This document shows, piece after piece, positions 1,422 to 24,422 of a stretch of 25,963 bases of DNA; the first letter of the stretch is position 1; every line of letters starts with the position of its first letter. This DNA is from a virus (lineage: Duplodnaviria > Heunggongvirae > Uroviricota > Caudoviricetes): IMG/VR virus record IMGVR_UViG_2563366982_000005; one strand, 5' to 3'. The position numbers were made by a program, and so were the translations under genes. The notes below the pieces were generated by a model. The model worked only from the letters and a program-made list of their open reading frames with translations, made no database searches and was not told where the DNA came from.

Positions 1422-3893
1422 TTAAAAATCAGCCTGATTCGGGATCAGTTTTTGCCAGATAACTGAAACGTATTTTGCCTGGTAACGGGCGTCATCAAGT
1501 GCATTATGGCGCTCACCTTCGAATGGAATAGCCGTTCTGGCATCGAAGTCTATGGCTTTCCCCAGCTCAACGATTGTGCGTACATCGCGATCGTTGTAGT
1601 AACGCCACGGGCAGGGGATCCCCTGCCGTTCGTATGAACGGCGCAAAATCGTGTTGTCGAAGTTGGCTCCATTTCCCCAGACCTGAACAAAAAATTCACC
1701 GGAGTTTTCGTCGATAAATTCCCGCAATTGTAACAGTGCATCATCTAACGGGATTTCATCGGTCATAATGGCAGATTGCGCTTCGCGTGATTGCTTAAGC
1801 CACCATTTAATGGTGTCCCGATCAATGACCCCGCCAGCAGTTTCCAGATCGATAGTCTTACTAAATTCCGGTCCCATATCTCCGGTTTGCGGATCGAAAA
1901 ATATTGCACCTATTGAGATGATCGGGGCATCAGGATTTTTTCCCATGGTTTCAAGGTCGATCATTAGATGGTCACACGTCCTGCTGGTGGATGTGATTTC
2001 TTGATGACCGTTCACCTTAATTGAGTGATCTGCCGTCTCGCCAGTTTCATTATCGCTATCGTGATGCTGATTGCCGTCAGTGTTCTCCTTGTGTGGATGT
2101 TCAGCGCCTTCCATTTCCTCCGGATCATCTTCCTGAACTTCAACCTGATACTCTTCATCGAATGTTTCCTGGTATGTTGCGTCGCCCATCACCGCGCCAC
2201 AATCAGGGCAGTTGCCGCCGCCGGTCTGACCGCAGGCGGTGCAGACTTTTTCCACTTCCTGTTGCGCCACTGGTTCAGGCTGTTTCGTTTCTGGCTCGTT
2301 TTGTAACGCATTTGGGCTGTTTTGTTCCGCTTTCTGGCCGTTCTGTTCCGTTTCTTGCTGGTTCTGATTCACTGAATCGCGGGTTTCAATCCCCTTCACC
2401 CATTTCGGATCATTCGGGTCGCTAATCCCTGCAACAAATTCACCACGTGATACAGCAAGCAACTTATTGGCGTCAGGCTGGCTGATATTGGCTGCCTGCA
2501 TAATTTTGTTTACTTCGTCAGCGGTAACTTTTACCGGCTCTGGTTGTGCGATCGTGTCAGATGCACCAGTATTTTGTTGTGAACCAGAGTACGTGCCGTT
2601 TTTACGTGCGAAGTATTCCTCTTTTGTGATTTCCGTAGCTCCCAGGGCCAGTGCTTTTTCCAGACCAGAAAGTTTGTTTGCGCGACCGTATTTTTCGCCG
2701 TCCTTATCGGTGAAAAGGAAGTAGAACGGTCCCTCACGCTCTACAGATGGTTCGTCTTCCACTTCGCATTCGGTTTTTTCGTTGTCCGGCATTGCCGTTT
2801 CCACTGCATCAGTTTCTGGTACTGGCGACGAGAGAGTATCAGTTGCGCTCTGATTTCTTCCTTCATCTTCAAACACGCCCTTTGTAGTCAGGTATTCAGT
2901 AATGTATTTGTTCAGTGCCACAGGGTCTTTGTGAATGTCGATCGGACGTTCACGGACAAGGCCAAAAATAGTCTGGCGGTCGTAGCGAAGGGCATCAGGC
3001 TGTTTGCGCATTGATGCCGAGATACGCTTCCAGTCTTCGCGGTCGTTGTCGATAACTTCATTTTTTGCCCAGCGATGGATGCTGCCGTCAATGTTTCCGG
3101 CATCCACATCACCAGGCCAGAGAGCGTAGGCCAGTTCGTCATCCAGTGTTTTCCATGTCTGCTTGTATTCGCGATGAATGGCAGCAATGACCGGGCTGAT
3201 TTTTCCTGTTGAATTTTCACTGTGCTGTTGATTGGTTCTGGCGCGGGCGAGATCAACAACAGACGTGTATTTTCCGGTTTCCTTGCGTTCACCTTCGCGA
3301 CGTTTTTTCCAGATGCGCATCTCTGCCTGAATTTCGGGCCATTTGGCACCAGGCTTACATTTATGCTTAACCCACCCGATGGCATGCAGCTTAAGCTCCG
3401 GATACATGGCGTTAACTTCTGGCATTTTCATCAACGCTTCAACGATATGTCCGTCGAATGTTGCCATGTCTTCCTGCAACAATTCCTGTGCGCTAATAAC
3501 CATATCAACGGTGATGTTTTCACATGTGTCGAACTTAACCATGACAGCGTTCTGTACTTCAGGGGCCAACTTGTCAAAAGTGACGTTCATCGGATCTGAT
3601 TCAGTCTCAACCGGGACAAAGGAAGCAGACTCCTCATCCCAGCGGTTTTCCTGCATATATTCAGCATCCCAGGAATCGAGGGCAGGGCGGGGTATGCCGG
3701 GTTTATCCTCACAGACAATAAATTTATAAGCGCAGTCCTGAGCAGCCGGATAATGTTCCAGGAATTGCCAGTGAAATTTTGCGCGGGCGCGACGTTCATC
3801 ACCGGCTTCAATGGCAGTGGCTACAGCGACTGCACCTTCTTCCTTTATTGCCTGTTCGTCCGGAATGGCGGCGCAAATAAAGACTTTACTCAT
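1422..3893 (-). CDS. Large phage exonuclease-like protein with C-terminal DnaQ-like (DEDDh) 3'-5' exonuclease domain
   Basis: 823-aa ORF; C-terminal region contains motifs resembling Exo I (MIDLETMG) and Exo III (H-x4-D: HNALDDARY) of DEDD exonucleases; a Cys-rich zinc-ribbon-like stretch (CTACGQ...CPDCG) mid-protein; acidic low-complexity central region. Domain assignment from motif inspection only. Confidence 0.6.
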   Translation of the reverse strand: MSKVFICAAIPDEQAIKEEGAVAVATAIEAGDERRARAKFHWQFLEHYPAAQDCAYKFIVCEDKPGIPRPALDSWDAEYMQENRWDEESASFVPVETESDPMNVTFDKLAPEVQNAVMVKFDTCENITVDMVISAQELLQEDMATFDGHIVEALMKMPEVNAMYPELKLHAIGWVKHKCKPGAKWPEIQAEMRIWKKRREGERKETGKYTSVVDLARARTNQQHSENSTGKISPVIAAIHREYKQTWKTLDDELAYALWPGDVDAGNIDGSIHRWAKNEVIDNDREDWKRISASMRKQPDALRYDRQTIFGLVRERPIDIHKDPVALNKYITEYLTTKGVFEDEGRNQSATDTLSSPVPETDAVETAMPDNEKTECEVEDEPSVEREGPFYFLFTDKDGEKYGRANKLSGLEKALALGATEITKEEYFARKNGTYSGSQQNTGASDTIAQPEPVKVTADEVNKIMQAANISQPDANKLLAVSRGEFVAGISDPNDPKWVKGIETRDSVNQNQQETEQNGQKAEQNSPNALQNEPETKQPEPVAQQEVEKVCTACGQTGGGNCPDCGAVMGDATYQETFDEEYQVEVQEDDPEEMEGAEHPHKENTDGNQHHDSDNETGETADHSIKVNGHQEITSTSRTCDHLMIDLETMGKNPDAPIISIGAIFFDPQTGDMGPEFSKTIDLETAGGVIDRDTIKWWLKQSREAQSAIMTDEIPLDDALLQLREFIDENSGEFFVQVWGNGANFDNTILRRSYERQGIPCPWRYYNDRDVRTIVELGKAIDFDARTAIPFEGERHNALDDARYQAKYVSVIWQKLIPNQADF

Positions 3894-4532: not shown

Positions 4533-4589
4533 AAAAGGGCGGCAGAGCAGTCACGGAGTAAAACTGATACCGCCAAACGTCACCAGAAA
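4533..4589 (-). ncRNA. dicF: DicF small regulatory RNA
   Basis: Minus-strand sequence UUUCUGGUGACGUUUGGCGGUAUCAGUUUUACUCCGUGACUGCUCUGCCGCCCUUUUU matches the DicF sRNA as I recall it, ending in a GC stem plus U-run intrinsic terminator; positioned between ydfC-like genes and dicB. Confidence 0.7.
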
Positions 4590-6308: not shown

Positions 6309-6770
6309 CTACTGGTTACGTTTCTTTAGTGCCAGCATGTTCTCGAAGGCTTCCTCGTAGAGCTTGTTTAGTCCACGTAGCTGGTTAAGGAGTTTGGCTT
6401 TTTCTGACGCAGGTAGAATCTCGAAGAGGTTAAGTAACTCTGCCTGTTCTTCATTGACCAGCCTCCATCCTTTGCCTGAAAAGTTATCATCATAATTATC
6501 TGATGATCTTACATAATTCATTAAGTCTTTAAGGTCTTCTCGAATGTCCTCTGGTTTTACCTTTAACAGAGCCGCAAATTTTAGCGCAGCGTCGGTATTT
6601 ACCGGTATCTTGCCGTTCAGATACTGGCTAACGGTGCCTTGAGATTCGAATCCCAACAACTCAGCCGCCAGCTCTTGAGTCAGCTTCAGCTCTTTTTTTC
6701 TTGCATTCCATGCGGCTTTTAAATTCTTGCTCGCTTCTGGAGTTGCAATCACTTCGCGTGTTTTTTTCAT
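6309..6770 (-). CDS. dicA: DicA-like XRE-family HTH repressor (prophage immunity repressor)
   Basis: 153-aa ORF with N-terminal HTH (LTQELAAELLGFESQGTVSQYLNG) and C-terminal motif (ELLNLFEILPASEKAKLL) resembling DicA as recalled; divergent from a Cro-like gene. Confidence 0.75.
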   Translation of the reverse strand: MKKTREVIATPEASKNLKAAWNARKKELKLTQELAAELLGFESQGTVSQYLNGKIPVNTDAALKFAALLKVKPEDIREDLKDLMNYVRSSDNYDDNFSGKGWRLVNEEQAELLNLFEILPASEKAKLLNQLRGLNKLYEEAFENMLALKKRNQ

Positions 6771-6845: not shown

Positions 6846-6877
6846 ATTTGCTCGAGGCATAACGTAGAAGGTTGGCT

Positions 6878-7153
6878 ATGAACTTAAGAGACTATTTAAA
6901 AGAGAAACATATCACCCAGCTACAGTTTGGGAAGCTAACGGGTTTATCTCAGGTGCATGTAAGTCGAGTGCTGGGGGGCTATGAAAGATTCAGCCCTGAA
7001 AAAGCATTACGTGTTGCTGAAGTAACGAATTTCGAGGTTACACCTCATGAACTCCGGCCTGATATTTACCCGAATCCAACCGACGGCTTACCTGTTGGAT
7101 TCAAGGCTAACACACCAAATGCATCGGAGTTGATTCATGAAAATCAGGCATGA
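6878..7153 (+). CDS. Cro/DicC/YdaS-like HTH regulator
   Basis: 91-aa frame from ATG 6878 (track ORF begins at an upstream TTG); HTH-like segment (QLQFGKLTGLSQVHVSRVLGG) and ELRPDI motif typical of YdaS/Cro-like proteins; divergent from repressor. Confidence 0.65.
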   Translation: MNLRDYLKEKHITQLQFGKLTGLSQVHVSRVLGGYERFSPEKALRVAEVTNFEVTPHELRPDIYPNPTDGLPVGFKANTPNASELIHENQA

Positions 7154-7562
7154 GCACATCCGCATGGCGATGAATGCCTGGGCGCATCCGGACGGTGAAA
7201 AAGTTCCGGCAGCTGAAATAACCCGGGCTTATTTTGAGCTTGGTATGACGTTCCCGGAATTATATGACGACAGCCATCCGGAAGCCCTGGCTCGCAATAC
7301 CCAGAAAATTTTCCGCTGGGTGGAGAAAGACACTCCTGATGCGGTTAAAAAAATTCAGGCGTTGTTACCAGCGATCGAAAAAGCAATGCCGCCTCTGCTG
7401 GTGGCCCGAATGCGCAGCCACAGTTCAGCTTATTTTCGGGAGCTGGTGGAGACGCGGGAACGACTGGTGAGAGACGCTGATGATTTTGTCGCAGTGGCGA
7501 TCGCTGGTTTCAACCAGATGAATCGTGGTGGCCCTGCAGGAAATATTGTGGCTGTGCATTGA
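7137..7562 (+). CDS. YdaT-like (CII-like) regulatory protein
   Basis: 141-aa ORF beginning MKIRHEHI, directly after cro-like gene with GGAG SD; position and N-terminus consistent with YdaT family as recalled. Confidence 0.5.
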   Translation: MKIRHEHIRMAMNAWAHPDGEKVPAAEITRAYFELGMTFPELYDDSHPEALARNTQKIFRWVEKDTPDAVKKIQALLPAIEKAMPPLLVARMRSHSSAYFRELVETRERLVRDADDFVAVAIAGFNQMNRGGPAGNIVAVH

Positions 7563-7633: not shown

Positions 7634-8674
7634 ATGGCTAACGCCTGGCTCAGATTATGGCATGACATGCCAAATGACCCTAAGTGGCGAACAATTGCCA
7701 GGGTGTCAGGGCAGCCAATTGCAACAGTGATGGCAGTGTATATCCACCTTCTGGTGAGCGCGTCACGAAATGTCACGACATGTCACGGCGTGTCACTACG
7801 TGGTCACATTGATGTCACGACGGAAGATTTAGCAAGTGCGCTTGATGTGACGGAAGAAGTAATTGATTCAATTTTACAGGCAATGCAGGGGCGGGTACTT
7901 GATGGAGATTTAATCACCGGATGGGAAAAACGCCAGGTACTGAAAGAGGACAATGGCAACGTTTCACAAACCGCGAAATCCCCGGCAGAGCGCAAGAGAG
8001 CGCAGCGCGAGAGGGAAAAATTACGAAAACAGAATGAGGGGTGTCACGACGAGTCACGCATATGTCACGACATGTCACGACGAGTCACGACAGATAAAGA
8101 TACAGATAAAGAATTAAACCCCACACATAACGCGCACGTGCGCGAGAGTGCTCCGACCAGTGAGTCGAGTGGTACGCCGTTGCAGGCAGCAGAACCTGCA
8201 TCCCTGGATGGACTGAGCGAACCCATCGGGAAATTTCCGATGGTCGATGACTGGCATCCGTCGCCGGATTTTCGACGACGGGCTGCGTTGTGGGGGATGG
8301 CTTTGCCGGAGCCGGAATTTACACCTGCTGAACTTGCCGCTTTCCGGGACTACTGGGCAGCGGAGGGGAAAGTTTTCACGCAGGTTCAGTGGGAGCAGAA
8401 ATTCGCCCGTCACGTAAATCACGTCAGGGCGCAGGTTAAGCCAGTCAGCAAGGGGGTAAACCATGCAGCAGCACCAGGTGGCACCGCATCACGGGCAGTT
8501 CAGGAAATTCGGGCAGCACGTGAGCAGTGGGAACGTGAAAACGGATTTATCAGCGACGGAAACGGTCAGGAAGCTGTGGGAACTCATGGGGGAGGTTTAT
8601 TCGAACCGCTGGACCCAGAAGAACGGGGCCGCACCTTCGAAGCTCTGGATTGCACAGATTGGCGCGATGACTGA
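7634..8674 (+). CDS. Replication initiation protein (O-like N-terminus with DnaT-like C-terminal domain)
   Basis: ATG 7634 with AGAAGAGG SD (track ORF starts at GTG 7628); contains two internal clusters of 10-bp-periodic GTCACG repeats (iterons), as lambda O contains ori; C-terminal region (FTPAELAAFRDYWAAEGKVFTQVQWEQKFARHV) resembles DnaT C-terminal domain. Confidence 0.7.
   Translation: MANAWLRLWHDMPNDPKWRTIARVSGQPIATVMAVYIHLLVSASRNVTTCHGVSLRGHIDVTTEDLASALDVTEEVIDSILQAMQGRVLDGDLITGWEKRQVLKEDNGNVSQTAKSPAERKRAQREREKLRKQNEGCHDESRICHDMSRRVTTDKDTDKELNPTHNAHVRESAPTSESSGTPLQAAEPASLDGLSEPIGKFPMVDDWHPSPDFRRRAALWGMALPEPEFTPAELAAFRDYWAAEGKVFTQVQWEQKFARHVNHVRAQVKPVSKGVNHAAAPGGTASRAVQEIRAAREQWERENGFISDGNGQEAVGTHGGGLFEPLDPEERGRTFEALDCTDWRDD
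7761..7821. repeat. Iteron cluster 1 (TGTCACG repeats at ~10-bp spacing)
   Basis: cgtcacgaaa/tgtcacgaca/tgtcacggcg/tgtcactacg/tggtcacatt/gatgtcacga: six helically phased copies inside the O-like gene. Confidence 0.55.
8041..8090. repeat. Iteron cluster 2 (GTCACG repeats at 10-11-bp spacing)
   Basis: gtgtcacgac/gagtcacgca/tatgtcacga/catgtcacga/cgagtcacga, followed by an AT-rich stretch (gataaagatacagataaagaattaaa, 8091-8117) that could serve as unwinding element. Confidence 0.55.
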
Positions 8675-9128
8675 GCAGCAAATCCGACAGGTCTGCCGCC
8701 AGTGCATGGACCGCTGCCGGGCGGGTGAAACATGGCCTCCGGACCTGGCTGAGTTTGTGGCGCTGATTTCAGAAAGCGGGGCCAATCCATTTGGCCTGAC
8801 GGTGGATGCTGTGATGGAGGAGTACCGCCGCTGGCGTGATGAGTCCTGGCGATATGACGGAAGCGACAAATATCCGTGGCCTCAGCCTGTGCTGTACCAC
8901 ATCTGCCTCGAAATGCGTACCAGAGGGATTGAGCGCCAGATGACGCAGGGTGAGTTAAAACGACTTGCGGAACGGCAACTGACGAAATGGGCAAAGCATG
9001 TTGGTAACGGGATGAGTGTTCCGCCAGTGCGACGACAACTGGAAGGGGCGAAACACCCGCAAGGGCCAACGCCAATTGAACGGCTGAAACAGGAATACGA
9101 ACGCCGGAAGGCAGCTGGTTTTATTTGA
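8463..9128 (+). CDS. Replication protein P-like (helicase loader)
   Basis: 221-aa ORF with AAGGGGG SD before ATG 8463; central region (GAMTEQQIRQV...FVAL...YPWPQP) resembles lambda P as recalled (ITTMEQV...FVAW...YPW); N-terminus overlaps the O-like gene out of frame. Confidence 0.6.
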   Translation: MQQHQVAPHHGQFRKFGQHVSSGNVKTDLSATETVRKLWELMGEVYSNRWTQKNGAAPSKLWIAQIGAMTEQQIRQVCRQCMDRCRAGETWPPDLAEFVALISESGANPFGLTVDAVMEEYRRWRDESWRYDGSDKYPWPQPVLYHICLEMRTRGIERQMTQGELKRLAERQLTKWAKHVGNGMSVPPVRRQLEGAKHPQGPTPIERLKQEYERRKAAGFI

Positions 9129-9161
9129 ATCTGAGAAACGATTTTGTCGGAGGAAATTTTA

Positions 9162-9932
9162 ATGGAAACCGTATTTGACGCACTGAAAGCAATGGGAAAA
9201 GCCACATCGGTAGAACTGGCCGCGCGACTTGATATCAGTCGTGAAGAGGTTCTCAACGAGCTGTGGGAACTCAAAAGAAATGGCGTCGTTGATAAAACTG
9301 GTCACACCTGGTTTCTAGCTGGCGAAGGTGAATCCCGGGTAACCGAAGAGCGGCCAGTAAAATCTGAAGCACAGGATATGCTGACCGGGGAGGTCGAACA
9401 AAAAGTTACCGCAGACATGATGATTGAGTTTATCGGTCAGGATGGTGCTAAAACGTGTGAGGAACTGGCGGGTAAGTTCGGCGTCAGTACTCGCAAGGTT
9501 GCCTCCACGCTGGCGGTGGTAACCGCAACGGGGCGGCTGGCACGCGTTAATCAGAACGGTAAATTTCGTTACTGCATGCCGGGCGATAATTTACCAGCAG
9601 AGCCGAAAGCCGCGCTGGTAACGGAAAGTGATGGTAAGGCCTTTCCTCAGCCAGCAGGTGCTGCGTTACCAGTCCGGGAAGCCGCAACACAGGAAGAAAT
9701 TAAAACAGAAACTGTGGCGGACATTGTGCAGCCGTTGCCATCGTTTACCGAAACGCAAGCAGATGAGCTGATTTTTCCGTCCCTTCGCAGGGCAAACCTG
9801 GCGCTGCGCAGGGCGAAAAGTGATGTTCAGAAGTGGGAGCGAGTCTGCGCCGCGCTGCGGGAGGTGAACAAGCACCGGGATATTGTTCGACAGATTACTG
9901 ATTCTTCCCGCCGTGTTGTATCGGAAAAGTGA
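9162..9932 (+). CDS. Hypothetical phage protein with winged-helix-like N-terminus
   Basis: ATG 9162 preceded by GGAGG (track ORF begins at TTG 9144); N-terminal segment ([30 protein letters not shown]) looks like a wHTH; otherwise unrecognised. Confidence 0.55.
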
Positions 9933-9947
9933 TTGCCGGAGGCGCTT

Positions 9948-10340
9948 ATGGCAAAAGTATTTACACCAGAAGAGCGGGAAGAAGTGAAGGCGCGAATTGT
10001 GGAATTCGTGCGCCTGAGCGGACGAGAAACTTTTCGACAACTGGCAGATAAAACGGGTGTCAGTAAGACCGCTATTCGTCGTTTATCTGGTGCGCTTGCG
10101 GCCAGTGGTGATGTCTGGCTCTCTGGTTGCGGGGTATTTCCATCAGAGCAGGCGTATCGCGTATGGCGTAAGACACCGGAGAAGGCTGCTGACCCGACAC
10201 TGATTCGAAAGTTACCTGACGGAGAAATACGTCGTTACAACAGACGGCAGAACATAATTTGTCGTGAGTGCCGCCAGAGCGAAGTTATGCAGCGTGTGCT
10301 GGCGTTCTATCGGGGAAACTTTCAGGAGGTGATGGAGTGA
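9948..10340 (+). CDS. Hypothetical phage protein
   Basis: ATG 9948 preceded by GGAGG (track ORF begins at TTG 9933); HTH-like segment (FRQLADKTGVSKTAIRRL). Confidence 0.5.
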   Translation: MAKVFTPEEREEVKARIVEFVRLSGRETFRQLADKTGVSKTAIRRLSGALAASGDVWLSGCGVFPSEQAYRVWRKTPEKAADPTLIRKLPDGEIRRYNRRQNIICRECRQSEVMQRVLAFYRGNFQEVME

Positions 10341-18033: not shown

Positions 18034-18408
18034 ATGCTCATAGATTTGGTTTTACCTTACCCGCCGACGGTGAACACTTACTGGCGACGCCGTGGCAGCA
18101 CATATTTTATCTCGGAGGAGGGAAAGCGTTATCGCCGGGCTGTGGCGCTTATTGTTCGCCAGCAGCGGCTGAAATTAAGCCTGTCCGGAAGGCTGGCGAT
18201 AAAGGTGATTGCAGAGCCACCGGATAAGCGTCGTCGCGACCTGGACAATATCCTGAAAGCACCGCTGGATGCGCTGACGCATGCGGGAGTGTTAATGGAC
18301 GATGAGCAGTTTGATGAAATCAATATCGTTCGTGGTCAGCCAGTATCTGGTGGACGTATGGGGGTGAAGATTTACCCCATAATGCATGAAGAGCAGGTCA
18401 AAAAATGA
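18034..18408 (+). CDS. rusA: Holliday junction resolvase RusA
   Basis: 124-aa ORF with AGAGG SD; RRRDLDN motif and overall pattern as in RusA; immediately upstream of Q, typical lambdoid position. Confidence 0.8.
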   Translation: MLIDLVLPYPPTVNTYWRRRGSTYFISEEGKRYRRAVALIVRQQRLKLSLSGRLAIKVIAEPPDKRRRDLDNILKAPLDALTHAGVLMDDEQFDEINIVRGQPVSGGRMGVKIYPIMHEEQVKK

Positions 18409-19226
18409 AACTGGAAGATTTACCGAAATACTACTCCCCAAAATCCCCTGGCCTGACCGATGCATCGGCCTCAACGTCAAAAGATGCGCTGAGTATCACT
18501 GATGTGATGGCCGCGCAGGGCATGACACAGAATCGGGCTGAGATGGGGTTTTCTGCGTTCCTGGGGAAAATGGGCATCAGTATGAATGACAGGGCGCGGG
18601 CAACAGAATTACTGGCAGATTATGCACTCAGTCGGTGCGATCGTGTGGCGGCGTTGAGAAAACTTCCGGCAGAAATAAAACCGGTAGTGATGCGCATTAT
18701 GGCTTCGTATGCGTTTGAAGATTATGCCCGTAGCGCGGCGAGCAAAAAACAGTGCCCCTGCTGTCACGGAAAAAAATTTATTGAAAGCGAGGTTTTTACA
18801 AACAAGATCCAGTATCCGGATGGTAAGCCACCAGTGTGGGCAAAGTGCACAAAAGGCGTGTATCCGTCTTACTGGGAAGAATGGAAAAAAGTCAGGGAGG
18901 TGGTAAAAGTTGCCTGTCCGGAGTGTGGCGGAAAGGGTGAGGTTTCCACCGCCTGTAAGGATTGCCGTGGGCGTGGTGTCGCCATTCATCGTGAAGAGTC
19001 GGTAAAACGTGGTATGCCTGTTATCAGAGATTGCCAGCGTTGTGGTGGTCGTGGCTGTGAAAGGCTGCCATCAACGGAGGCATTTAATGCCATATGCAAA
19101 GTGACGAGTGCTATCACGCTTGATACGTGGAAAAAATCAGTGAAACGCTTTTACGATACGTTGGTGGTTCGGTTTGACATTGAAGAGGCATGGGCGGAGC
19201 GGCAGTTAAAGAGGGTAACGCGATAG
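18405..19226 (+). CDS. Late-gene antitermination protein Q
   Basis: 273-aa ORF overlapping rusA stop (ATGA); multiple CxxC zinc-finger pairs (CPCCHG, CPECGG, CKDCRG, CQRCGG); followed by promoter-terminator (PR'/tR'-like) region. Confidence 0.75.
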   Translation: MKLEDLPKYYSPKSPGLTDASASTSKDALSITDVMAAQGMTQNRAEMGFSAFLGKMGISMNDRARATELLADYALSRCDRVAALRKLPAEIKPVVMRIMASYAFEDYARSAASKKQCPCCHGKKFIESEVFTNKIQYPDGKPPVWAKCTKGVYPSYWEEWKKVREVVKVACPECGGKGEVSTACKDCRGRGVAIHREESVKRGMPVIRDCQRCGGRGCERLPSTEAFNAICKVTSAITLDTWKKSVKRFYDTLVVRFDIEEAWAERQLKRVTR

Positions 19227-19308
19227 TGTTGTTGATTTTTCCCGAATCTGTGGTAAATTTGCTCTAACGATGGGCGTTTTATGCCTGACGTTAGAAGATT
19301 TTTTACAC

Positions 19309-19330
19309 CCCGCCGCCTGGCGGGTTTTTT
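19309..19330 (+). terminator. tR'-like intrinsic terminator downstream of Q
   Basis: CCCGCC-GCCT-GGCGGG followed by TTTTTT, about 80 bp downstream of Q stop; a late promoter (PR'/qut) is expected in 19227-19308 but not confidently resolved. Confidence 0.55.
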
Positions 19331-19452
19331 ATGACTGAAATCGCGTCAGTACAGTAAACGCGCTGGTGGCGGTGAATACCTGTCTTTCAGCTTGCTGGCT
19401 TTTTCGACAAGAGTTATTGGTGTGTCACGTTAACCGGAAAAGGGAAAAAGAC

Positions 19453-19650
19453 ATGCTAAAACAGCAGGATATGACAGAAACCGCCAGAGTGGTGTTTAAT
19501 GAATTAAGCGTTACCGAACCGGCGACAGTCGGGGAGATAGCGCAGAATACTTACCTTTCACGCGAACGCTGCCAGTTAATACTGACCCAGCTGGTTATGG
19601 CGGGTCTGGCAGACTATCAGTTTGGTTGTTACAGACGCCTTCAGTCCTGA
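19453..19650 (+). CDS. Small hypothetical protein (65 aa)
   Basis: Internal ATG with AAAGGGAAAAAG leader inside the 94-aa track ORF; wHTH-like character (VGEIAQNTYLSRERCQLIL). Confidence 0.4.
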   Translation: MLKQQDMTETARVVFNELSVTEPATVGEIAQNTYLSRERCQLILTQLVMAGLADYQFGCYRRLQS

Positions 19651-19800
19651 AGGCTTTTTTATTTGTGGTAAATGGGCGGCTGGTGGGTGTTAGGGGCACT
19701 CACCAGCCATCTGCTCATGCGTCTGGATCACAAGCAAACCTCAGGCCCACTGCTTTGCGCAAAAGCAGAATGAGCCTATCAGAGACAGGTTTAATGATCC

Positions 19801-20859
19801 ATGCTTAATACTGTAAAAATATCCAGTTGTGAGTTAATCAACGCCGACTGCCTGGAATTTATCCGGTCGTTACCCGAAAATTCTGTTGACCTGATAGTCA
19901 CGGACCCGCCGTACTTTAAAGTGAAGCCTGAGGGCTGGGATAACCAGTGGAAGGGCGACGATGATTACCTGAAGTGGCTGGACCAGTGTCTGGCGCAGTT
20001 CTGGCGGGTGCTGAAACCTGCCGGAAGTCTTTACCTGTTCTGTGGTCATCGCCTGGCATCTGATATCGAAATCATGATGCGTGAACGCTTCAGTGTGCTG
20101 AACCATATTATCTGGGCAAAGCCGTCCGGACGCTGGAACGGGTGCAACAAGGAAAGCCTGCGGGCGTATTTCCCCGCCACAGAGCGCATTCTGTTCGCGG
20201 AACATTATCAGGGGCCGTATCGTCCGAAAGATGCCGGGTATGAGGCGAAGGGCAGGGCACTGAAACAGCATGTGATGGCCCCGCTGATTGCTTACTTTCG
20301 TGATGCGCGCGCTGCCCTGGGGATAACGGCAAAACAGATAGTGGATGCCACAGGAAAGAAAAACATGGTGTCGCACTGGTTCAGTGCCAGTCAGTGGCAG
20401 CTGCCGAACGAAAGTGATTATCTGAAATTACAGGCGCTGTTTGCCCGGGTGGCAGAAGAGAAGCATCAGCGGGGTGAACTGGAAAAGCCCCACCACCAGC
20501 TGCTGGAGACGTATACTTCACTGAACCGGCAGTATGCGGAACTGCAGAGTGAATATAAGCATCTGCGGCGGTATTTTGGCGTGACGGCGCAGGTGCCGTA
20601 CACGGATGTGTGGACGCATAAACCGGTGCAGTACTATCCCGGGAAACATCCGTGCGAAAAACCGGCAGAAATGCTGCAGCAGATAATCAGTGCGAGCAGT
20701 CGTCCGGGTGACCTGGTTGCAGATTTCTTCATGGGGTCGGGTTCGACAGTCAAAGCCGCGATGGCGCTGGGGCGTCGTGCTACAGGCGTTGAGCTGGAGA
20801 CTGAACGTTTTGAACAGACGGTCAGGGAAGTTCAGGATTTAGCCAGTCAGAACGGATGA
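19801..20859 (+). CDS. Orphan DNA methyltransferase (amino-MTase, DPPY motif IV before FxGSGST motif I)
   Basis: 352 aa; VTDPPYF near N-terminus and FFMGSGST near C-terminus, the circularly permuted order of beta-class N6-adenine/N4-cytosine MTases; no adjacent restriction endonuclease gene seen. Confidence 0.8.
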   Translation: MLNTVKISSCELINADCLEFIRSLPENSVDLIVTDPPYFKVKPEGWDNQWKGDDDYLKWLDQCLAQFWRVLKPAGSLYLFCGHRLASDIEIMMRERFSVLNHIIWAKPSGRWNGCNKESLRAYFPATERILFAEHYQGPYRPKDAGYEAKGRALKQHVMAPLIAYFRDARAALGITAKQIVDATGKKNMVSHWFSASQWQLPNESDYLKLQALFARVAEEKHQRGELEKPHHQLLETYTSLNRQYAELQSEYKHLRRYFGVTAQVPYTDVWTHKPVQYYPGKHPCEKPAEMLQQIISASSRPGDLVADFFMGSGSTVKAAMALGRRATGVELETERFEQTVREVQDLASQNG

Positions 20860-20899
20860 TATTGCAGGATTAGTTACGTACCGTTATTATCCTGCGCCC

Positions 20900-20975
20900 G
20901 GCCCTTTAGCTCAGTGGTGAGAGCGAGCGACTCATAATCGCCAGGTCGCTGGTTCAAATCCAGCAAGGGCCACCA
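20900..20975 (+). tRNA. tRNA with CAU anticodon (Ile2-lysidine or Met type)
   Basis: 76 nt, acceptor stem GGCCCTT/AAGGGCC, anticodon loop CTCATAA, T-loop GGTTCAAATCC, 3' CCA encoded. Confidence 0.8.
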
Positions 20976-20984
20976 TATCACATA

Positions 20985-21061
20985 CCGCCATTAGCTCATC
21001 GGGATAGAGCGCCAGCCTTCGAAGCTGGTTGCGCGGGGTTCGAGTCCTCGATGGCGGTCCA
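20985..21061 (+). tRNA. tRNA-Arg (anticodon UCG)
   Basis: 77 nt, acceptor CCGCCAT/ATGGCGG, anticodon loop CTTCGAA, T-loop GGTTCGAGTCC, CCA encoded. Confidence 0.75.
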
Positions 21062-21075
21062 TTTATCGGCATTCT

Positions 21076-21152
21076 GCGTTGTTAGCTCAGCCGGACAGAG
21101 CAATTGCCTTCTAAGCAATCGGTCACTGGTTCGAATCCAGTACAACGCGCCA
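21076..21152 (+). tRNA. tRNA-Arg (anticodon UCU)
   Basis: 77 nt, acceptor GCGTTGT/ACAACGC, anticodon loop CTTCTAA, T-loop GGTTCGAATCC, CCA encoded. Confidence 0.8.
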
Positions 21153-21322
21153 GACTTATTTTTCCCGGCTCGCTTTTGCGGGCCTTTTTTGTATCCGCGC
21201 CACGCCCGGCGCATATCAACCACAGAGCCTTTCGGGGGTGAGCTTACGGAGTGGTCAGTGTGACTTTCTCTGTGGGCAGATCGCTCCCGGGCGTTGGCTC
21301 ACCCACCCAAAGGAACGTCACA

Positions 21323-21754
21323 ATGCTTGGAATCTTCAAAAAGAAAACCCGCAGAGCGTCTGCGGAAATTAAAAAGTTTGAAAAACGCGATCTGGCACAG
21401 GCAGTGATTAACGCTGCATACCTGGTGGCTTATGCCGATGGTGAATGTGAGGCTTCCGAGAAAGCGAAGATCGAACAGGTATTACGTAACCAGCCCACCT
21501 TGTCCGCGTTTACGTCAGAAATTAATGCGATTAGCGCAACCATTATCGGTCAGCTGGATACGAACTTTAAAATTGGTCGTCGTGCGGCGTTACGTGAGAT
21601 CGAGGATGTGAAACACGATACGCGTGAAGCGGAAGACGTGCTGGATGTGGCGGTGGCCATTGCCGAAGCAGACGGCGAAATAGAGCCGGAAGAGCGCAAG
21701 GTGCTGGAAGAGATTGCCGGTGTTCTGGGCCTTCGTCTGGAGAATCATCTGTGA
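21323..21754 (+). CDS. TerB-like (tellurite-resistance TerB family fold) protein
   Basis: 143-aa frame from internal ATG with AAGGAA SD inside the 167-aa track ORF; repeated A-x-x-x-V/A-A-x-A-D-G-E motifs (AAYLVAYADGECEASE; VAVAIAEADGEIEPEE) typical of TerB-like helical domains. Confidence 0.55.
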   Translation: MLGIFKKKTRRASAEIKKFEKRDLAQAVINAAYLVAYADGECEASEKAKIEQVLRNQPTLSAFTSEINAISATIIGQLDTNFKIGRRAALREIEDVKHDTREAEDVLDVAVAIAEADGEIEPEERKVLEEIAGVLGLRLENHL

Positions 21755-21762
21755 CGGTAAAA

Positions 21763-21915
21763 ATGCGTCTGGCTGTGGTTGCGCTCCTGCTGTTTCTGGT
21801 GGTGATGGTGGACTTCAGCAGCCGGATAATGTCAGTGCTGGCTGACGGTGTGCTGGTGGCGGGTGTGGTGGTTGTTGCTTTCCCGTTGCTGAAAAAGAAA
21901 GCATCAGGCGATTAG
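21763..21915 (+). CDS. Small hydrophobic peptide (50 aa), possible membrane protein
   Basis: Hand-translated MRLAVVALLLFLVVMVDFSSRIMSVLADGVLVAGVVVVAFPLLKKKASGD; two hydrophobic segments, C-terminal lysines; starts 9 nt after TerB-like stop; below track cutoff. Confidence 0.35.
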   Translation: MRLAVVALLLFLVVMVDFSSRIMSVLADGVLVAGVVVVAFPLLKKKASGD

Positions 21916-21950
21916 CAGGGTATCAGTTACCCGTTGAAATTTTTAAATAC

Positions 21951-22178
21951 CTCACAATTCAGGCGGTTGACTGTTGTCTGGTTTGCGGGGAGTTTGTTAA
22001 AAGAAACTGGCATGGTGAATCCCCCTGTGCGGAGGGGCAATCAGCAACTGGTGTTTTGTCACCGACCCTTATCCTTTCTGTGCGGGTTCAGGTGCTGATA
22101 CTGAACTCACCGGGAGGCACCCGGCACCATGCAATGGCACATAGTGCCACTCTCCAGCCCCTCTCCGGAGGGGCTTTT
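21951..22178 (+). repeat. Structured repeat element, copy 1 (conserved hairpins plus terminator)
   Basis: Shares with copy 2 the blocks CTCACAATTCAG..TTGAC, TTTGTTAAAA, GCATGGTGAATCCCCCTGNGCGGAGGGGC, CTGAACTCACCGGGAGGCACCCGGCACCATG and AGCCCCTCTCCGGAGGGGCTTT; ends in a GC hairpin followed by a T-run. Confidence 0.6.
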
Positions 22179-22369
22179 CTGTGCCGGATACATCACAGTT
22201 TCTGGAACCTTAGGTACTACAGTATCAGTCAGGGTGCTATATTTTCAGATGTGATGAAAGCCTGTCAGCAGGCAGGGCGTATCGGAAATGACCCAGTAGA
22301 GAAAACGTTGACTCAGATACCGGTGCTGAGTTACCGGGAAACCGGCATCACATGACCGCTATCCTTCCA

Positions 22370-22396
22370 GGCCCATCCGCTCCGGTGGGCCTTTTT
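22370..22396 (+). terminator. Intrinsic terminator-like hairpin between the repeat copies
   Basis: GGCCCA-(loop)-TGGGCC followed by TTTTT. Confidence 0.45.
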
Positions 22397-22433
22397 ACTG
22401 CAGAAAACAGGTTCCCCGTTAAATGCTATGTTG

Positions 22434-22665
22434 CTCACAATTCAGTAAGTTGACAGTTGCCTGTCAGACTGGGCATTTGTTAAAAAAATTTCGCATGGTG
22501 AATCCCCCTGAGCGGAGGGGCGACTGGTGACGGTATAATCTCTGATTATCAAAACGAGAATGACGCGGGTTTAGTGGCACCGGGCTGAACTCACCGGGAG
22601 GCACCCGGCACCATGTGCATGATGATACAGATACGCGGCTTTAGCCCCTCTCCGGAGGGGCTTTC
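22434..22665 (+). repeat. Structured repeat element, copy 2
   Basis: Same conserved blocks as copy 1 in the same order, with divergent spacers; terminal hairpin GCCCCTC-TCCG-GAGGGGC plus T-rich tail. Confidence 0.6.
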
Positions 22666-22880
22666 TTGTGGGCAAAAAAAGCCCGAGTGGGTTCGGGCAA
22701 CAGCATGAGATATACATTTTTATAATCGAATGGATTTTAACCAGAATTCATAAGGCTGCGCAACTGCGCGGTCTTTTTCGAATTGCGGGCTGTCGTCTCT
22801 CTTCTGCCATTGTCCTGTAACTTCCGGACTTCAGCCCGCTCCTTATTTTACTCACAATATTATCCCGGCCGGGAGGATTC

Positions 22881-24422
22881 ATGGCATTTAAACACTATGA
22901 CGTGGTCAGGGCGGCATCGCCGTCAGACCTTGCGAAACGACTGACACAAAAACTGAAGGAGGGGTGGCAGCCATTTGGCAGTCCGGTGGCCATCACGCCT
23001 TATACCCTGATGCAGGCCATTGCGGCGGAAGGTGATGTCACCACACCTGTGGTGGTGAAGCCGTCGGATGGAGAAGGCGCAGTTATCAGCACCACCAGCA
23101 ACCCGGAGTATTACTTTGTTGTTGCCCTGGCCGGGCAGTCAAACGGTATGGCGTATGGTGAAGGGCTTCCGCTGCCGGAGACATATGACCGTCCGGACCC
23201 GCGTATTAAACAGCTGGCGCGTCGCAGCACTGTCACGCCGGGTGGTGCGTCCTGTAACTACAATGACATTATTCCTGCGGACCACTGCCTGCATGATGTT
23301 CAGGATTTGAGTAAGTTTTCACACCCGAAAGCCAGCGCAGCTCAGTATGGATGCGTGGGGCAGGGATTACATATCGCGAAGAAATTGTTGCCGTTTATTC
23401 CGGCGAATGCCGGTATTCTTCTGGTTCCGTGCTGCCGTGGTGGTTCTGCATTTTTGGCGGGCGATGAAGGTACCTTCAGCGAATCCACCGGCGCAAGCGA
23501 GACCTCGGCACGCTGGGGTGTAGATAAGCCACTGTACAAGGACCTGCTTACCCGTACTCAGGCCGCACTGAAGGCCAACCCTAAAAATATTCTGCTTGCA
23601 GTGGTCTGGATGCAGGGCGAGTTTGATTTGAAACAGGGTGCATACGCCACTCAGCCGGGGCTGTTTGATTCCATGGTGGAAAAATATCGTTCTGACCTGT
23701 CGGAATTCGGAGGTCAGTGTCTCGGGGGCTCTCCGTCATCGGTTCCCTGGATTTGTGGCGACACGACCTACTACTGGAAGCAGACTTATTCTTCGCAATA
23801 CGATGCGGTGTATGGTGCATACAAGACGAAATCCGCAAAAAAAATCTTCTTTGTGCCGTTTATGACGGATGAAAACGGGCGAAATGTGGGTACCAACGAG
23901 CCGTCAGAAGATCCGGATGTTGCGGATATTGGGTATTACGGAGCCGGTGGTCGAACGGACGCCAAAACCTGGACGACGGCTGACCGTAAAACGCATTTTG
24001 GATCATGGGCACGTCGTGGGATTATTTCCGACCGTCTGGCAACGGCGATTCTTGTGCATGCCGGGAGAAACGCTGAATTCATTACCGGAAAACAGCCTGA
24101 TACGGTGAAGCCCACCGGACCTTCCGGTGAAGGTACGGAGAGAGAGCCGGAAGCCCCGGTCAGTAACCGAACCCTGATGAGTCTGCTGGCGTCCGGCGAA
24201 GACCTGGCATCACAGGGCTGGCGCTATTATCACAAACCGGCGAGCGGAGACAATGTTAACAAAAACATTGCTGAAGCGGTGGTCAGTGATGCGGGGGCTA
24301 CGGGAGGTAAGGCCCTGCAACTGAATAAACCGGAAAACCACATCTGGTTTCTGGAGCATGATGCAGCCGGACAGGGAGTGGAGTTACTGAAGAAGGGGGG
24401 GACGTGTGAGCGTACGGTTTAA
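22881..24422 (+). CDS. NanS-p-like esterase (DUF1737 N-terminus plus sialate O-acetylesterase/SASA-type domain)
   Basis: 513 aa; GGAGG SD; GQSN motif (VALAGQSNGMAYGEG) characteristic of SASA/SGNH-like carbohydrate esterases; position upstream of lysis genes as for nanS-p in Stx phages (recalled). Confidence 0.7.
   Translation: MAFKHYDVVRAASPSDLAKRLTQKLKEGWQPFGSPVAITPYTLMQAIAAEGDVTTPVVVKPSDGEGAVISTTSNPEYYFVVALAGQSNGMAYGEGLPLPETYDRPDPRIKQLARRSTVTPGGASCNYNDIIPADHCLHDVQDLSKFSHPKASAAQYGCVGQGLHIAKKLLPFIPANAGILLVPCCRGGSAFLAGDEGTFSESTGASETSARWGVDKPLYKDLLTRTQAALKANPKNILLAVVWMQGEFDLKQGAYATQPGLFDSMVEKYRSDLSEFGGQCLGGSPSSVPWICGDTTYYWKQTYSSQYDAVYGAYKTKSAKKIFFVPFMTDENGRNVGTNEPSEDPDVADIGYYGAGGRTDAKTWTTADRKTHFGSWARRGIISDRLATAILVHAGRNAEFITGKQPDTVKPTGPSGEGTEREPEAPVSNRTLMSLLASGEDLASQGWRYYHKPASGDNVNKNIAEAVVSDAGATGGKALQLNKPENHIWFLEHDAAGQGVELLKKGGTCERTV

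Follow-up and report, generated by a model that had tools for sequence, protein, structure and literature searches.

A candidate replication origin with helically phased GTCACG iterons inside the initiator gene of a lambdoid Escherichia coli prophage

Introduction

The replication origin of phage lambda, made up of iterons and an AT-rich tract, is located midway along the initiator gene O (PMC7466680). Gene O contains the whole of it, with four 18-base pair (bp) iterons (39034-39118) at a spacing of 20-24 bp and, after them, a stretch whose coding strand is A-rich. Among other phage initiators, G38P of SPP1, the model 'replisome organizer', binds its own origin, oriL (PMC5615212), and DopC/DopE is a domesticated pair of O-like and P-like proteins, in which DopC, with an HTH_36 N-domain and a DnaT C-terminal motif, was found by the authors to contain no iterons (PMC5509034). 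The present work deals with a 25,963-nucleotide (nt) stretch of DNA, hereafter called the window (IMG/VR record IMGVR_UViG_2563366982_000005), which represents a lambdoid Escherichia coli prophage, and more specifically with the gene of a 346-residue replication protein that it carries (7634-8674, + strand), here called the initiator. An original prediction, made from the sequence alone, had placed a candidate replication origin in this gene on account of two clusters of GTCACG repeats. That proposal is supported by selection acting on the DNA, by conservation among relatives, by the position of the repeats at a protein linker and by their linkage to the N-terminal domain of the initiator, each sequence-level prediction examined having been borne out. 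We estimate at roughly 75% the probability that positions 7762-8120 represent a theta-type replication origin of the prophage, located inside the coding sequence of its own initiator.

Iteron clusters and A-rich stretch in the initiator gene

Cluster 1 (7762-7819, + strand) comprises GTCACG-type hexamers spaced by 10, 10, 10, 11 and 11 bp. Six phased copies had been predicted at 7761-7821, and six are present, but only four of them are exact (starting at 7762, 7772, 7782 and 7814), the other two carrying one mismatch each (GTCACT at 7792 and GTCACA at 7803). Cluster 2 (8043-8089, + strand), upstream of which cluster 1 lies by 281 bp, consists of five exact GTCACG copies, as had been announced for 8041-8090, with starts at 8043, 8053, 8064, 8074 and 8084, spacings of 10, 11, 10 and 10 bp, and the local consensus ATGTCACGAC. 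All hexamers of both clusters are on the + strand and in direct orientation, and period-10 arrays were reported by Tandem Repeats Finder at 7762-7807 and 8042-8092. The number of GTCACG motifs over the whole window is unremarkable, with 17 occurrences for 10.7 expected. At 10/11-bp spacing, a single exact hexamer forms chains of up to five members in the window, whereas in 300 first-order Markov simulations of the window the longest such chain had two members in 299 cases and three in one. The clustering of GTCACG is thus real and non-random, its count alone being ordinary.

Directly 3' of cluster 2 is an A-rich, purine-rich stretch (8090-8120, + strand), in which ACAGATAAAGA occurs twice and is followed by ATTAAAC, and which has a 6-nt (two-codon) substructure. 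Its guanine-plus-cytosine (GC) content is 26%, and the 30-mer of lowest GC content in the gene (23%) starts at 8089, in agreement with the AT-rich stretch that had been predicted after the second cluster. A possible single inverted copy, GTCACA, is found between the clusters on the - strand (7846-7851). Phage Tritos and a Pseudomonas phage have TGTCACG without mismatch at this site, but as the copy falls on the conserved LDVT codons, its significance is uncertain.

Selection on the DNA and codon phase

The repeats had been described as being in frame and as encoding repetitive peptide segments. They do lie inside the open reading frame (ORF), but copies of the hexamer fall in every one of the three codon phases (VT / CH / SR). 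Because the 10-11-nt period is not a multiple of three and the hexamer occurs in all phases, the encoded peptides are not repetitive, and neither VTTCHGVSL nor CHDESRICHDMSRRVTT is periodic. The conservation of the hexamers was considered at the level of synonymous positions, in 20 species-level GTCACG loci aligned in the same register, with pairwise nucleotide identities of 61-99% (median 69%). Third-codon positions in the hexamers of cluster 1 are 95-100% conserved, with a mean of 98%, versus a mean of 56% for third positions elsewhere, at codons with a conserved amino acid (Mann-Whitney p = 8e-6). This difference in synonymous conservation indicates that selection acts on the DNA and rules out a purely protein-level explanation.

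These data bear on the idea that the repeats have no function as DNA, being instead a coding microsatellite prone to slippage or a peptide repeat under selection, with the A-rich stretch serving as a DKDT linker or a recombination linker. The segments that the repeats encode are indeed of low confidence or disordered in the structural model, copy number varies, and the A-rich stretch coincides with a module junction (see below) and has a two-codon substructure, all of which would suit such an origin of the repeats. On the other hand, a period of 10-11 nt that yields a non-repetitive peptide is not what this idea predicts, nor is the near invariance of synonymous hexamer positions across species of 61-99% nucleotide identity, nor the retention of the phasing and of both positions while the hexamer changes between clades. 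It is accordingly the least probable of the explanations considered here, and we regard it as extremely unlikely.

Conservation in relatives and hexamer types

Relatives were found by tblastn searches of phage genomes with the N-terminal domain, which identified Pseudomonas, Aeromonas, Ralstonia and uncultured phages, and by scanning bacterial genomes, one for each species, which gave 80 loci of 35-100% identity, 75 of them usable for counts. The hosts of the scan loci are Gamma-, Beta- and Alphaproteobacteria and members of a few other phyla. The original prediction had named the absence of the repeats, or of their phasing, in homologues as evidence against an origin; contrary to this, at least three phased copies are present at the position of cluster 2 in 70 of the 75 species loci, and at least four in 47. 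At least three copies are found at cluster 1 as well in 52 of them. In relatives, the 36 nt that follow cluster 2 have a mean GC content of 35%, whereas that of the gene is 55%, and purines make up 74% of their coding strand, with GATAAAGATAAAGA, GATACAGATACA or AGAGAAGAG as typical sequences. From these counts, cluster 2 and the A-rich stretch form a near-universal core, and cluster 1 is a frequent addition. Copy number differs among close relatives, with four or six units in cluster 1 and four or five in cluster 2, and the difference between six and four copies in cluster 1 amounts to a 21-bp in-frame indel, i.e., two repeat units.

Among the phages, GTCACG clusters occur at the same gene positions in a Pseudomonas phage of 64% identity, in which the next gene codes for a primase-helicase (4 + 4 copies), and in an Aeromonas phage of 69% identity, in which the C-domain is DnaT-like and the next gene is that of a DnaC-like loader (4 + 3 copies). 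The same layout is found with GCAACG in Ralstonia phage Firinga (37% identity; DnaB next) and with CGAACGC in an uncultured phage (46% identity). In the bacterial loci, GTCACG dominates in Escherichia, Pseudomonas, Aeromonas and Bordetella and is also used by an alphaproteobacterium, GTAACG is found in Enterobacter and Marinobacter, GTGACG in Paraburkholderia, CGAACG (CGAACG/GAACGC) in many Betaproteobacteria, and GCAACG in Ralstonia and Cupriavidus. GGAACG is likewise a dominant hexamer, and the ACG ending was reported for all clade types.

This distribution also has a bearing on which protein reads the hexamers. They might be bound by a factor other than the initiator, whether a host protein or another phage protein, such as the product of the cII/YdaT-like or DUF1627 gene, and that no residues of the N-domain were found to track the hexamer type would fit such a factor. 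However, in the phages of Pseudomonas, Aeromonas and Ralstonia, which keep the repeats, the neighboring genes are wholly different and the N-domain is the sole constant partner. A host factor, for its part, would leave unexplained both the use of different hexamers within one host family and the use of the same GTCACG across Enterobacteria, Pseudomonas, Bordetella and an alphaproteobacterium. Recognition by another factor thus appears very improbable.

Exchange of the N-terminal module between phages

In megablast comparisons with phage genomes, the initiator gene splits into two match blocks. Nucleotides 1-479 of the gene are about 88% identical to those of Evi, Tritos and other phages, the C-terminal halves being unrelated, and nucleotides 459-1041 match ydaU of Rac-SA53, PPompW and others at about 92%, the N-terminal halves being unrelated. 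The two blocks overlap at nucleotides 459-479 of the gene, which correspond to 8092-8112, within the A-rich stretch. Tritos retains the GTCACG clusters (4 + 5 copies) and the A-rich stretch. In contrast, PPompW has a different N-domain and, at the equivalent place, four to five unrelated repeats of the ACACCCAAAAAC type, and Rac-SA53 has a third N-domain with repeats of the GTTCAAACA/GTTTGAACA type, followed by the common A-rich stretch. The match blocks and the repeats of these three phages indicate that the repeats belong to the N-domain module and that exchange takes place at the A-rich stretch. Across relatives, the helicase partners vary as well, including P-like, DnaC-like, primase-helicase and DnaB proteins.

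Two further elements near the clusters were assigned to the C-terminal module. A perfect 12-bp palindrome, GCGCACGTGCGC, lies just past the A-rich stretch (8131-8142), and it is probably outside the conserved origin, as it is part of the C-module and is missing from relatives with other C-domains. An isolated GTCACG at 8409 was likewise dropped as an iteron, since it is also present in Rac-SA53 and PPompW and hence part of the C-module.

A different fusion was observed in Serratia and Pantoea genomes (loci L137 and L155), where the same N-domain is joined to another C-terminal part (YYVY...GIS.NPWAR) that may resemble a GIY-YIG-type nuclease motif, a likeness noticed by eye only. At the junction of these genes (nucleotides 320-360), CTACGTA/ACTACG repeats replace GTCACG, and there is no A-rich stretch.

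The initiator protein

In the AlphaFold model, the initiator starts with a confidently predicted winged-helix N-domain (residues 1-100; 7634-7933), followed by a basic helix (residues 117-134), a disordered linker (residues 138-195), a confidently predicted DnaT-like domain for binding single-stranded DNA (about residues 196-270; 8219-8443) and a C-terminal tail of low confidence. Cluster 1 encodes a hairpin of lower confidence inside the N-domain (residues 43-63, with a pLDDT confidence of about 64-72). Cluster 2 encodes residues 137-153, predicted to be disordered, and together with the A-rich stretch it covers residues 137-162, a segment of predicted disorder between the two confident domains. 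As modeled, this architecture of winged helix, disordered linker and DnaT-like C-domain fits an initiator. The hairpin encoded by cluster 1 was considered as a possible DNA-reading element, which is unlikely, as similar AS..E.RG hairpins are found in relatives devoid of cluster 1, independently of the hexamer that they use.

The sole Pfam match of the protein is the DnaT DNA-binding domain PF17948 (residues 201-267, E 1e-17). With Foldseek, the C-domain matches residues 84-153 of DnaT (4ou6), with a template modeling (TM) score of 0.93 and 59% identity. In contrast, the DnaT equivalog of NCBIfam, NF002770, scores 97.4 bits against a cutoff of 201 and aligns over profile positions 80-166 only. 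By these profile comparisons, the initiator carries a DnaT-like domain and is not DnaT. In PHROG it falls in 'replication initiation protein' families, and its N-terminal 160 residues weakly match 'replisome organizer' (PHROG 4880, E 4.5e-5) and 'DnaD-like helicase loader', and fold searches place the N-domain in the broad winged-helix class and in nothing narrower. The gene had been called O-like, which holds as far as function is concerned, but homology with lambda O was not detected, neither by BLASTP (E 2.4) nor as a match to Pfam Phage_rep_O. The initiator is thus a functional analogue of lambda O and not a homologue. Similarly, it did not match Phage_rep_org_N (PF09681) at E <= 0.01, and one of six relatives matched that family with an E value of 0.017.

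The 59% identity with DnaT, together with the order of DnaT-like and DnaC-like genes in the Aeromonas phage, raises the separate question of whether dnaT was derived from such a phage initiator. In the bacterial chromosome, dnaT and dnaC form a gene pair in an operon.

The lambda-P-like loader and its overlap with the initiator

The next gene (8463-9128, + strand) was identified as a lambda-P-like helicase loader by Pfam (PF06992, E 5e-16, residues 53-188 of the long ORF), by PHROG (PHROG 109, 'P-like helicase loader', residues 19-221) and by BLASTP with lambda P (E 2e-6). Judging from these matches, its product is a true, if distant, homologue of lambda P. RefSeq places the start of this gene at 8667, giving a protein of 153 residues, whereas homology in Pfam, PHROG and lambda P begins well upstream, between residues 19 and 86 of that longer frame. 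The N-terminal part of the P-like ORF shares, in a different frame, the final 212 nt of the initiator ORF (8463-8674). The DnaT homology of the initiator stops at about 8468, and in 20 distinct variants neither frame of the overlap is interrupted. A single PHROG profile, 482 residues long, covers both the initiator and the P-like protein, which hints at fusion or frameshifting in some phages.

A model for initiation and its main rival

The repeats and their phasing, the A-rich stretch, the selection at the DNA level, the conserved layout, the linkage to the N-domain and the architecture of the protein are direct findings, to which a scheme for binding, unwinding and helicase loading, and for any role of looping or of transcription across the origin, can be added by analogy with lambda O, P and ori. 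Following derepression, transcription from the early promoter on the cro side would lead to synthesis of the initiator, whose winged-helix N-domain would bind the GTCACG hexamers. At cluster 2, where successive sites are one helical turn apart, initiator molecules would for that reason stack on one face of the DNA. Cluster 1 would supply extra binding sites, possibly via looping, and could either strengthen the complex or act in control. The nucleoprotein complex would destabilize the adjoining A-rich stretch (8090-8120), which is proposed to be both a candidate DNA-unwinding element and the junction for recombination between the N- and C-modules. The DnaT-like C-domain would then hold single-stranded DNA, dock the loader-helicase complex, or both, and the lambda-P-like protein would bring the host DnaB.

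The main rival to this scheme also has the initiator bind the hexamers, but for autoregulation or copy control, by roadblock, titration or handcuffing, with replication starting elsewhere in the prophage. It draws on the location of the sites inside the initiator's own transcription unit, on the dispensability of cluster 1 in 23 of 75 relatives and on the variable copy number among close relatives (4/6 in cluster 1, 4/5 in cluster 2). Extra iterons work as control elements in iteron plasmids. Nevertheless, cluster 2 is almost everywhere coupled to an A-rich stretch of low stability, which a pure operator would not need, and the N-domain, the repeats and the A-rich stretch move as one module between differing helicase systems, as origins would. 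Furthermore, no other phased array is present among the repeats, tandem repeats and consensus sites reported for the replication region. We therefore consider this rival unlikely, though less so than the two alternatives discussed above.

Several observations weigh against the assignment of 7762-8120 as an origin. As the initiator does not resemble lambda O in sequence, the likeness to lambda is architectural only. With about 30 bp, the A-rich stretch is short. Sites within the initiator's own gene could serve autoregulation besides initiation as well as instead of it. Only one or two weak repeats are found in the relatives from Ventosimonas and Entomomonas. The literature, in a search that left subscription journals mostly uncovered, gave no account of iterons of the GTCACG type or of any origin for initiators of this family; in particular, neither the papers on Eru-type Stx phages nor that on a Bcep22-like phage treat them.

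The relationship between the N-domain and the hexamer is a further point of this kind. When 81 sequences were grouped by hexamer, no N-domain residues tracked the hexamer type, and the comparison of the alphaproteobacterial GTCACG user (L162) with its CGAACG relatives showed clade-level differences only and no clear specificity determinants. A clean switch from GTCACG to GTAACG was sought in loci from Erwinia, Enterobacter and Pantoea (L109, L112 and L110, respectively) and was rejected, as these loci mix GTCAC, GTAAC and GTGAC in both orientations. At nucleotides 120-240 and 395-460 of these genes, some units are spaced by 5 bp and some form perfect palindromes (GTAACGTTAC). The mixture of units suggests that the third base of the hexamer may be read loosely and that both orientations are tolerated in this subclade. 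The hexamer differences between clades may thus be in part drift in a loosely read core and not a true change of specificity, and the case for a rigid specificity code is weaker.

Prevalence and genomic setting

The N-module (7634-8112) is present in 2186 of 5426 complete E. coli genomes (about 40%), at 3119 places in all and at up to five per genome. In O157:H7 strains, it is found at three places, with about 91% identity. RefSeq labels for the protein are 'DnaT-like ssDNA-binding domain-containing protein', where ssDNA stands for single-stranded DNA, 'phage replisome organizer' and 'hypothetical protein', none of the annotation records examined marking an origin. Prophages that reside together in E. 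coli may share initiator specificity.

The replication region of the window is 99.9% identical to that of prophages of ABU 83972, NCTC86 and other strains, and in ABU 83972 a truncated ompW gene adjoins the prophage. Upstream of the initiator gene are genes for a cI-like repressor (6309-6770, - strand), a cro/YdaS-like protein (6872-7153, + strand) and a cII/YdaT-like protein (7137-7562, + strand), and downstream of the loader gene are those for a DUF1627 protein (9144-9932, + strand) and a DUF977 protein (9933-10340, + strand). A scan for promoters and terminators gave no signal above background in the origin region. Base-composition skew has no inflection at the proposed origin, and it is uninformative for a prophage segment transcribed one way.

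Elsewhere in the window, the DicF antisense small RNA (sRNA) of the dicB/ydfD region was identified on the - strand (4537-4588; Rfam, 76.7 bits). The late regulatory region (18405-24422) has a layout like that of Stx phages but lacks stx. It contains genes for the Q antiterminator (18405-19226) and a DNA methylase (19801-20859), three tRNA genes (20900-21152) for tRNA-Met(CAT), tRNA-Arg(TCG) and tRNA-Arg(TCT), and an ORF with a TerB domain (21251-21754), which we take to occupy the spot of the toxin genes in Stx phages. Two copies of the STnc100 sRNA follow (21981-22186 and 22464-22673), then an AsxR-like 'anti-stx2' sRNA on the - strand (22676-22728), whose score exactly equals the gathering score, and an ORF for DUF1737 and a sialate esterase of the NanS-p-like type (22881-24422).

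Implications

A broader interpretation joins these observations, in which the locus would stand as the first example of a large and as yet uncharacterised family of initiators and origins in Proteobacteria, defined by a hexamer series, a bipartite origin and a shared iteron type. We hold this interpretation tentatively and regard it as doubtful as a whole. As a first property, the winged-helix initiator would read a minimal NNNACG once per helical turn, and GTCACG, GTAACG, GTGACG, GCAACG and CGAACG would form a natural specificity series. As a second, the origin would be bipartite, with one set of iterons in the coding sequence of the initiator's DNA-binding domain, acting by looping or handcuffing. 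As a third, up to five prophages per E. coli genome, and those at three places in O157:H7 strains, would have one iteron type in common, and their origins could cross-activate or compete on induction.

Knowing the origin site and its hexamer bears on prophage induction and on the in situ amplification of neighboring genes, helps to predict cross-talk between co-resident prophages, and could serve for lambda-dv-like vectors with new compatibility groups. It also makes origin annotation possible across many proteobacterial prophages, and the clade-specific hexamers offer a comparative series for the joint change of an initiator and its sites. The principle is unsurprising, and the general view of phage replication is unchanged, the lambda plan being carried out with different parts; the element is nonetheless very common, unannotated as an origin and directly testable.

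Comparison with known systems

A close parallel is with lambda. In both, the origin, a proposed one in the window, is placed midway along the initiator gene, and its iterons precede a stretch whose coding strand is A-rich, at the same position and in the same orientation. The origin DNA is located between the parts of the gene for the N-terminal DNA-binding region and for the C-terminal region, with the exception of cluster 1 of the window, which is inside the N-domain. The initiator gene is downstream of cro and cII-like genes, and a gene for a loader of the P family comes next. The number of iterons varies among relatives, as it does between lambda, with four, and Stx phages, with six. In contrast, the window initiator has no detectable similarity to O, and its C-domain is DnaT-like and not of the lambda O type. 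Lambda iterons are 18 bp long, have internal dyad symmetry and form a single cluster, whereas those of the window are 6-bp cores in a unit of about 10 bp, direct, one helical turn apart, and grouped in two clusters. By its analogy with the lambda plan, executed with an unrelated initiator, this locus is a new case in the class of origins inside initiator genes.

SPP1 G38P and oriL, as described, stand apart from the window in host range, partner proteins and repeat sequences. With DopC/DopE and initiators of the PPompW type, the window initiator shares the DnaT-like C-terminal domain and a partner of the P family, PPompW and Rac-SA53 being about 92% identical to it in the C-module, but the N-domain differs, and the repeats of PPompW are unrelated. 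Finally, short iterons of 6-8 bp, arranged in more than one cluster and associated with an AT-rich region, are found in ori and crr of satellite phage P4 and in SaPI origins. The initiators of P4 and SaPIs are self-loading primase-helicases, and both the geometry of their origins and the position relative to the gene are unlike those of the origin proposed for the window.

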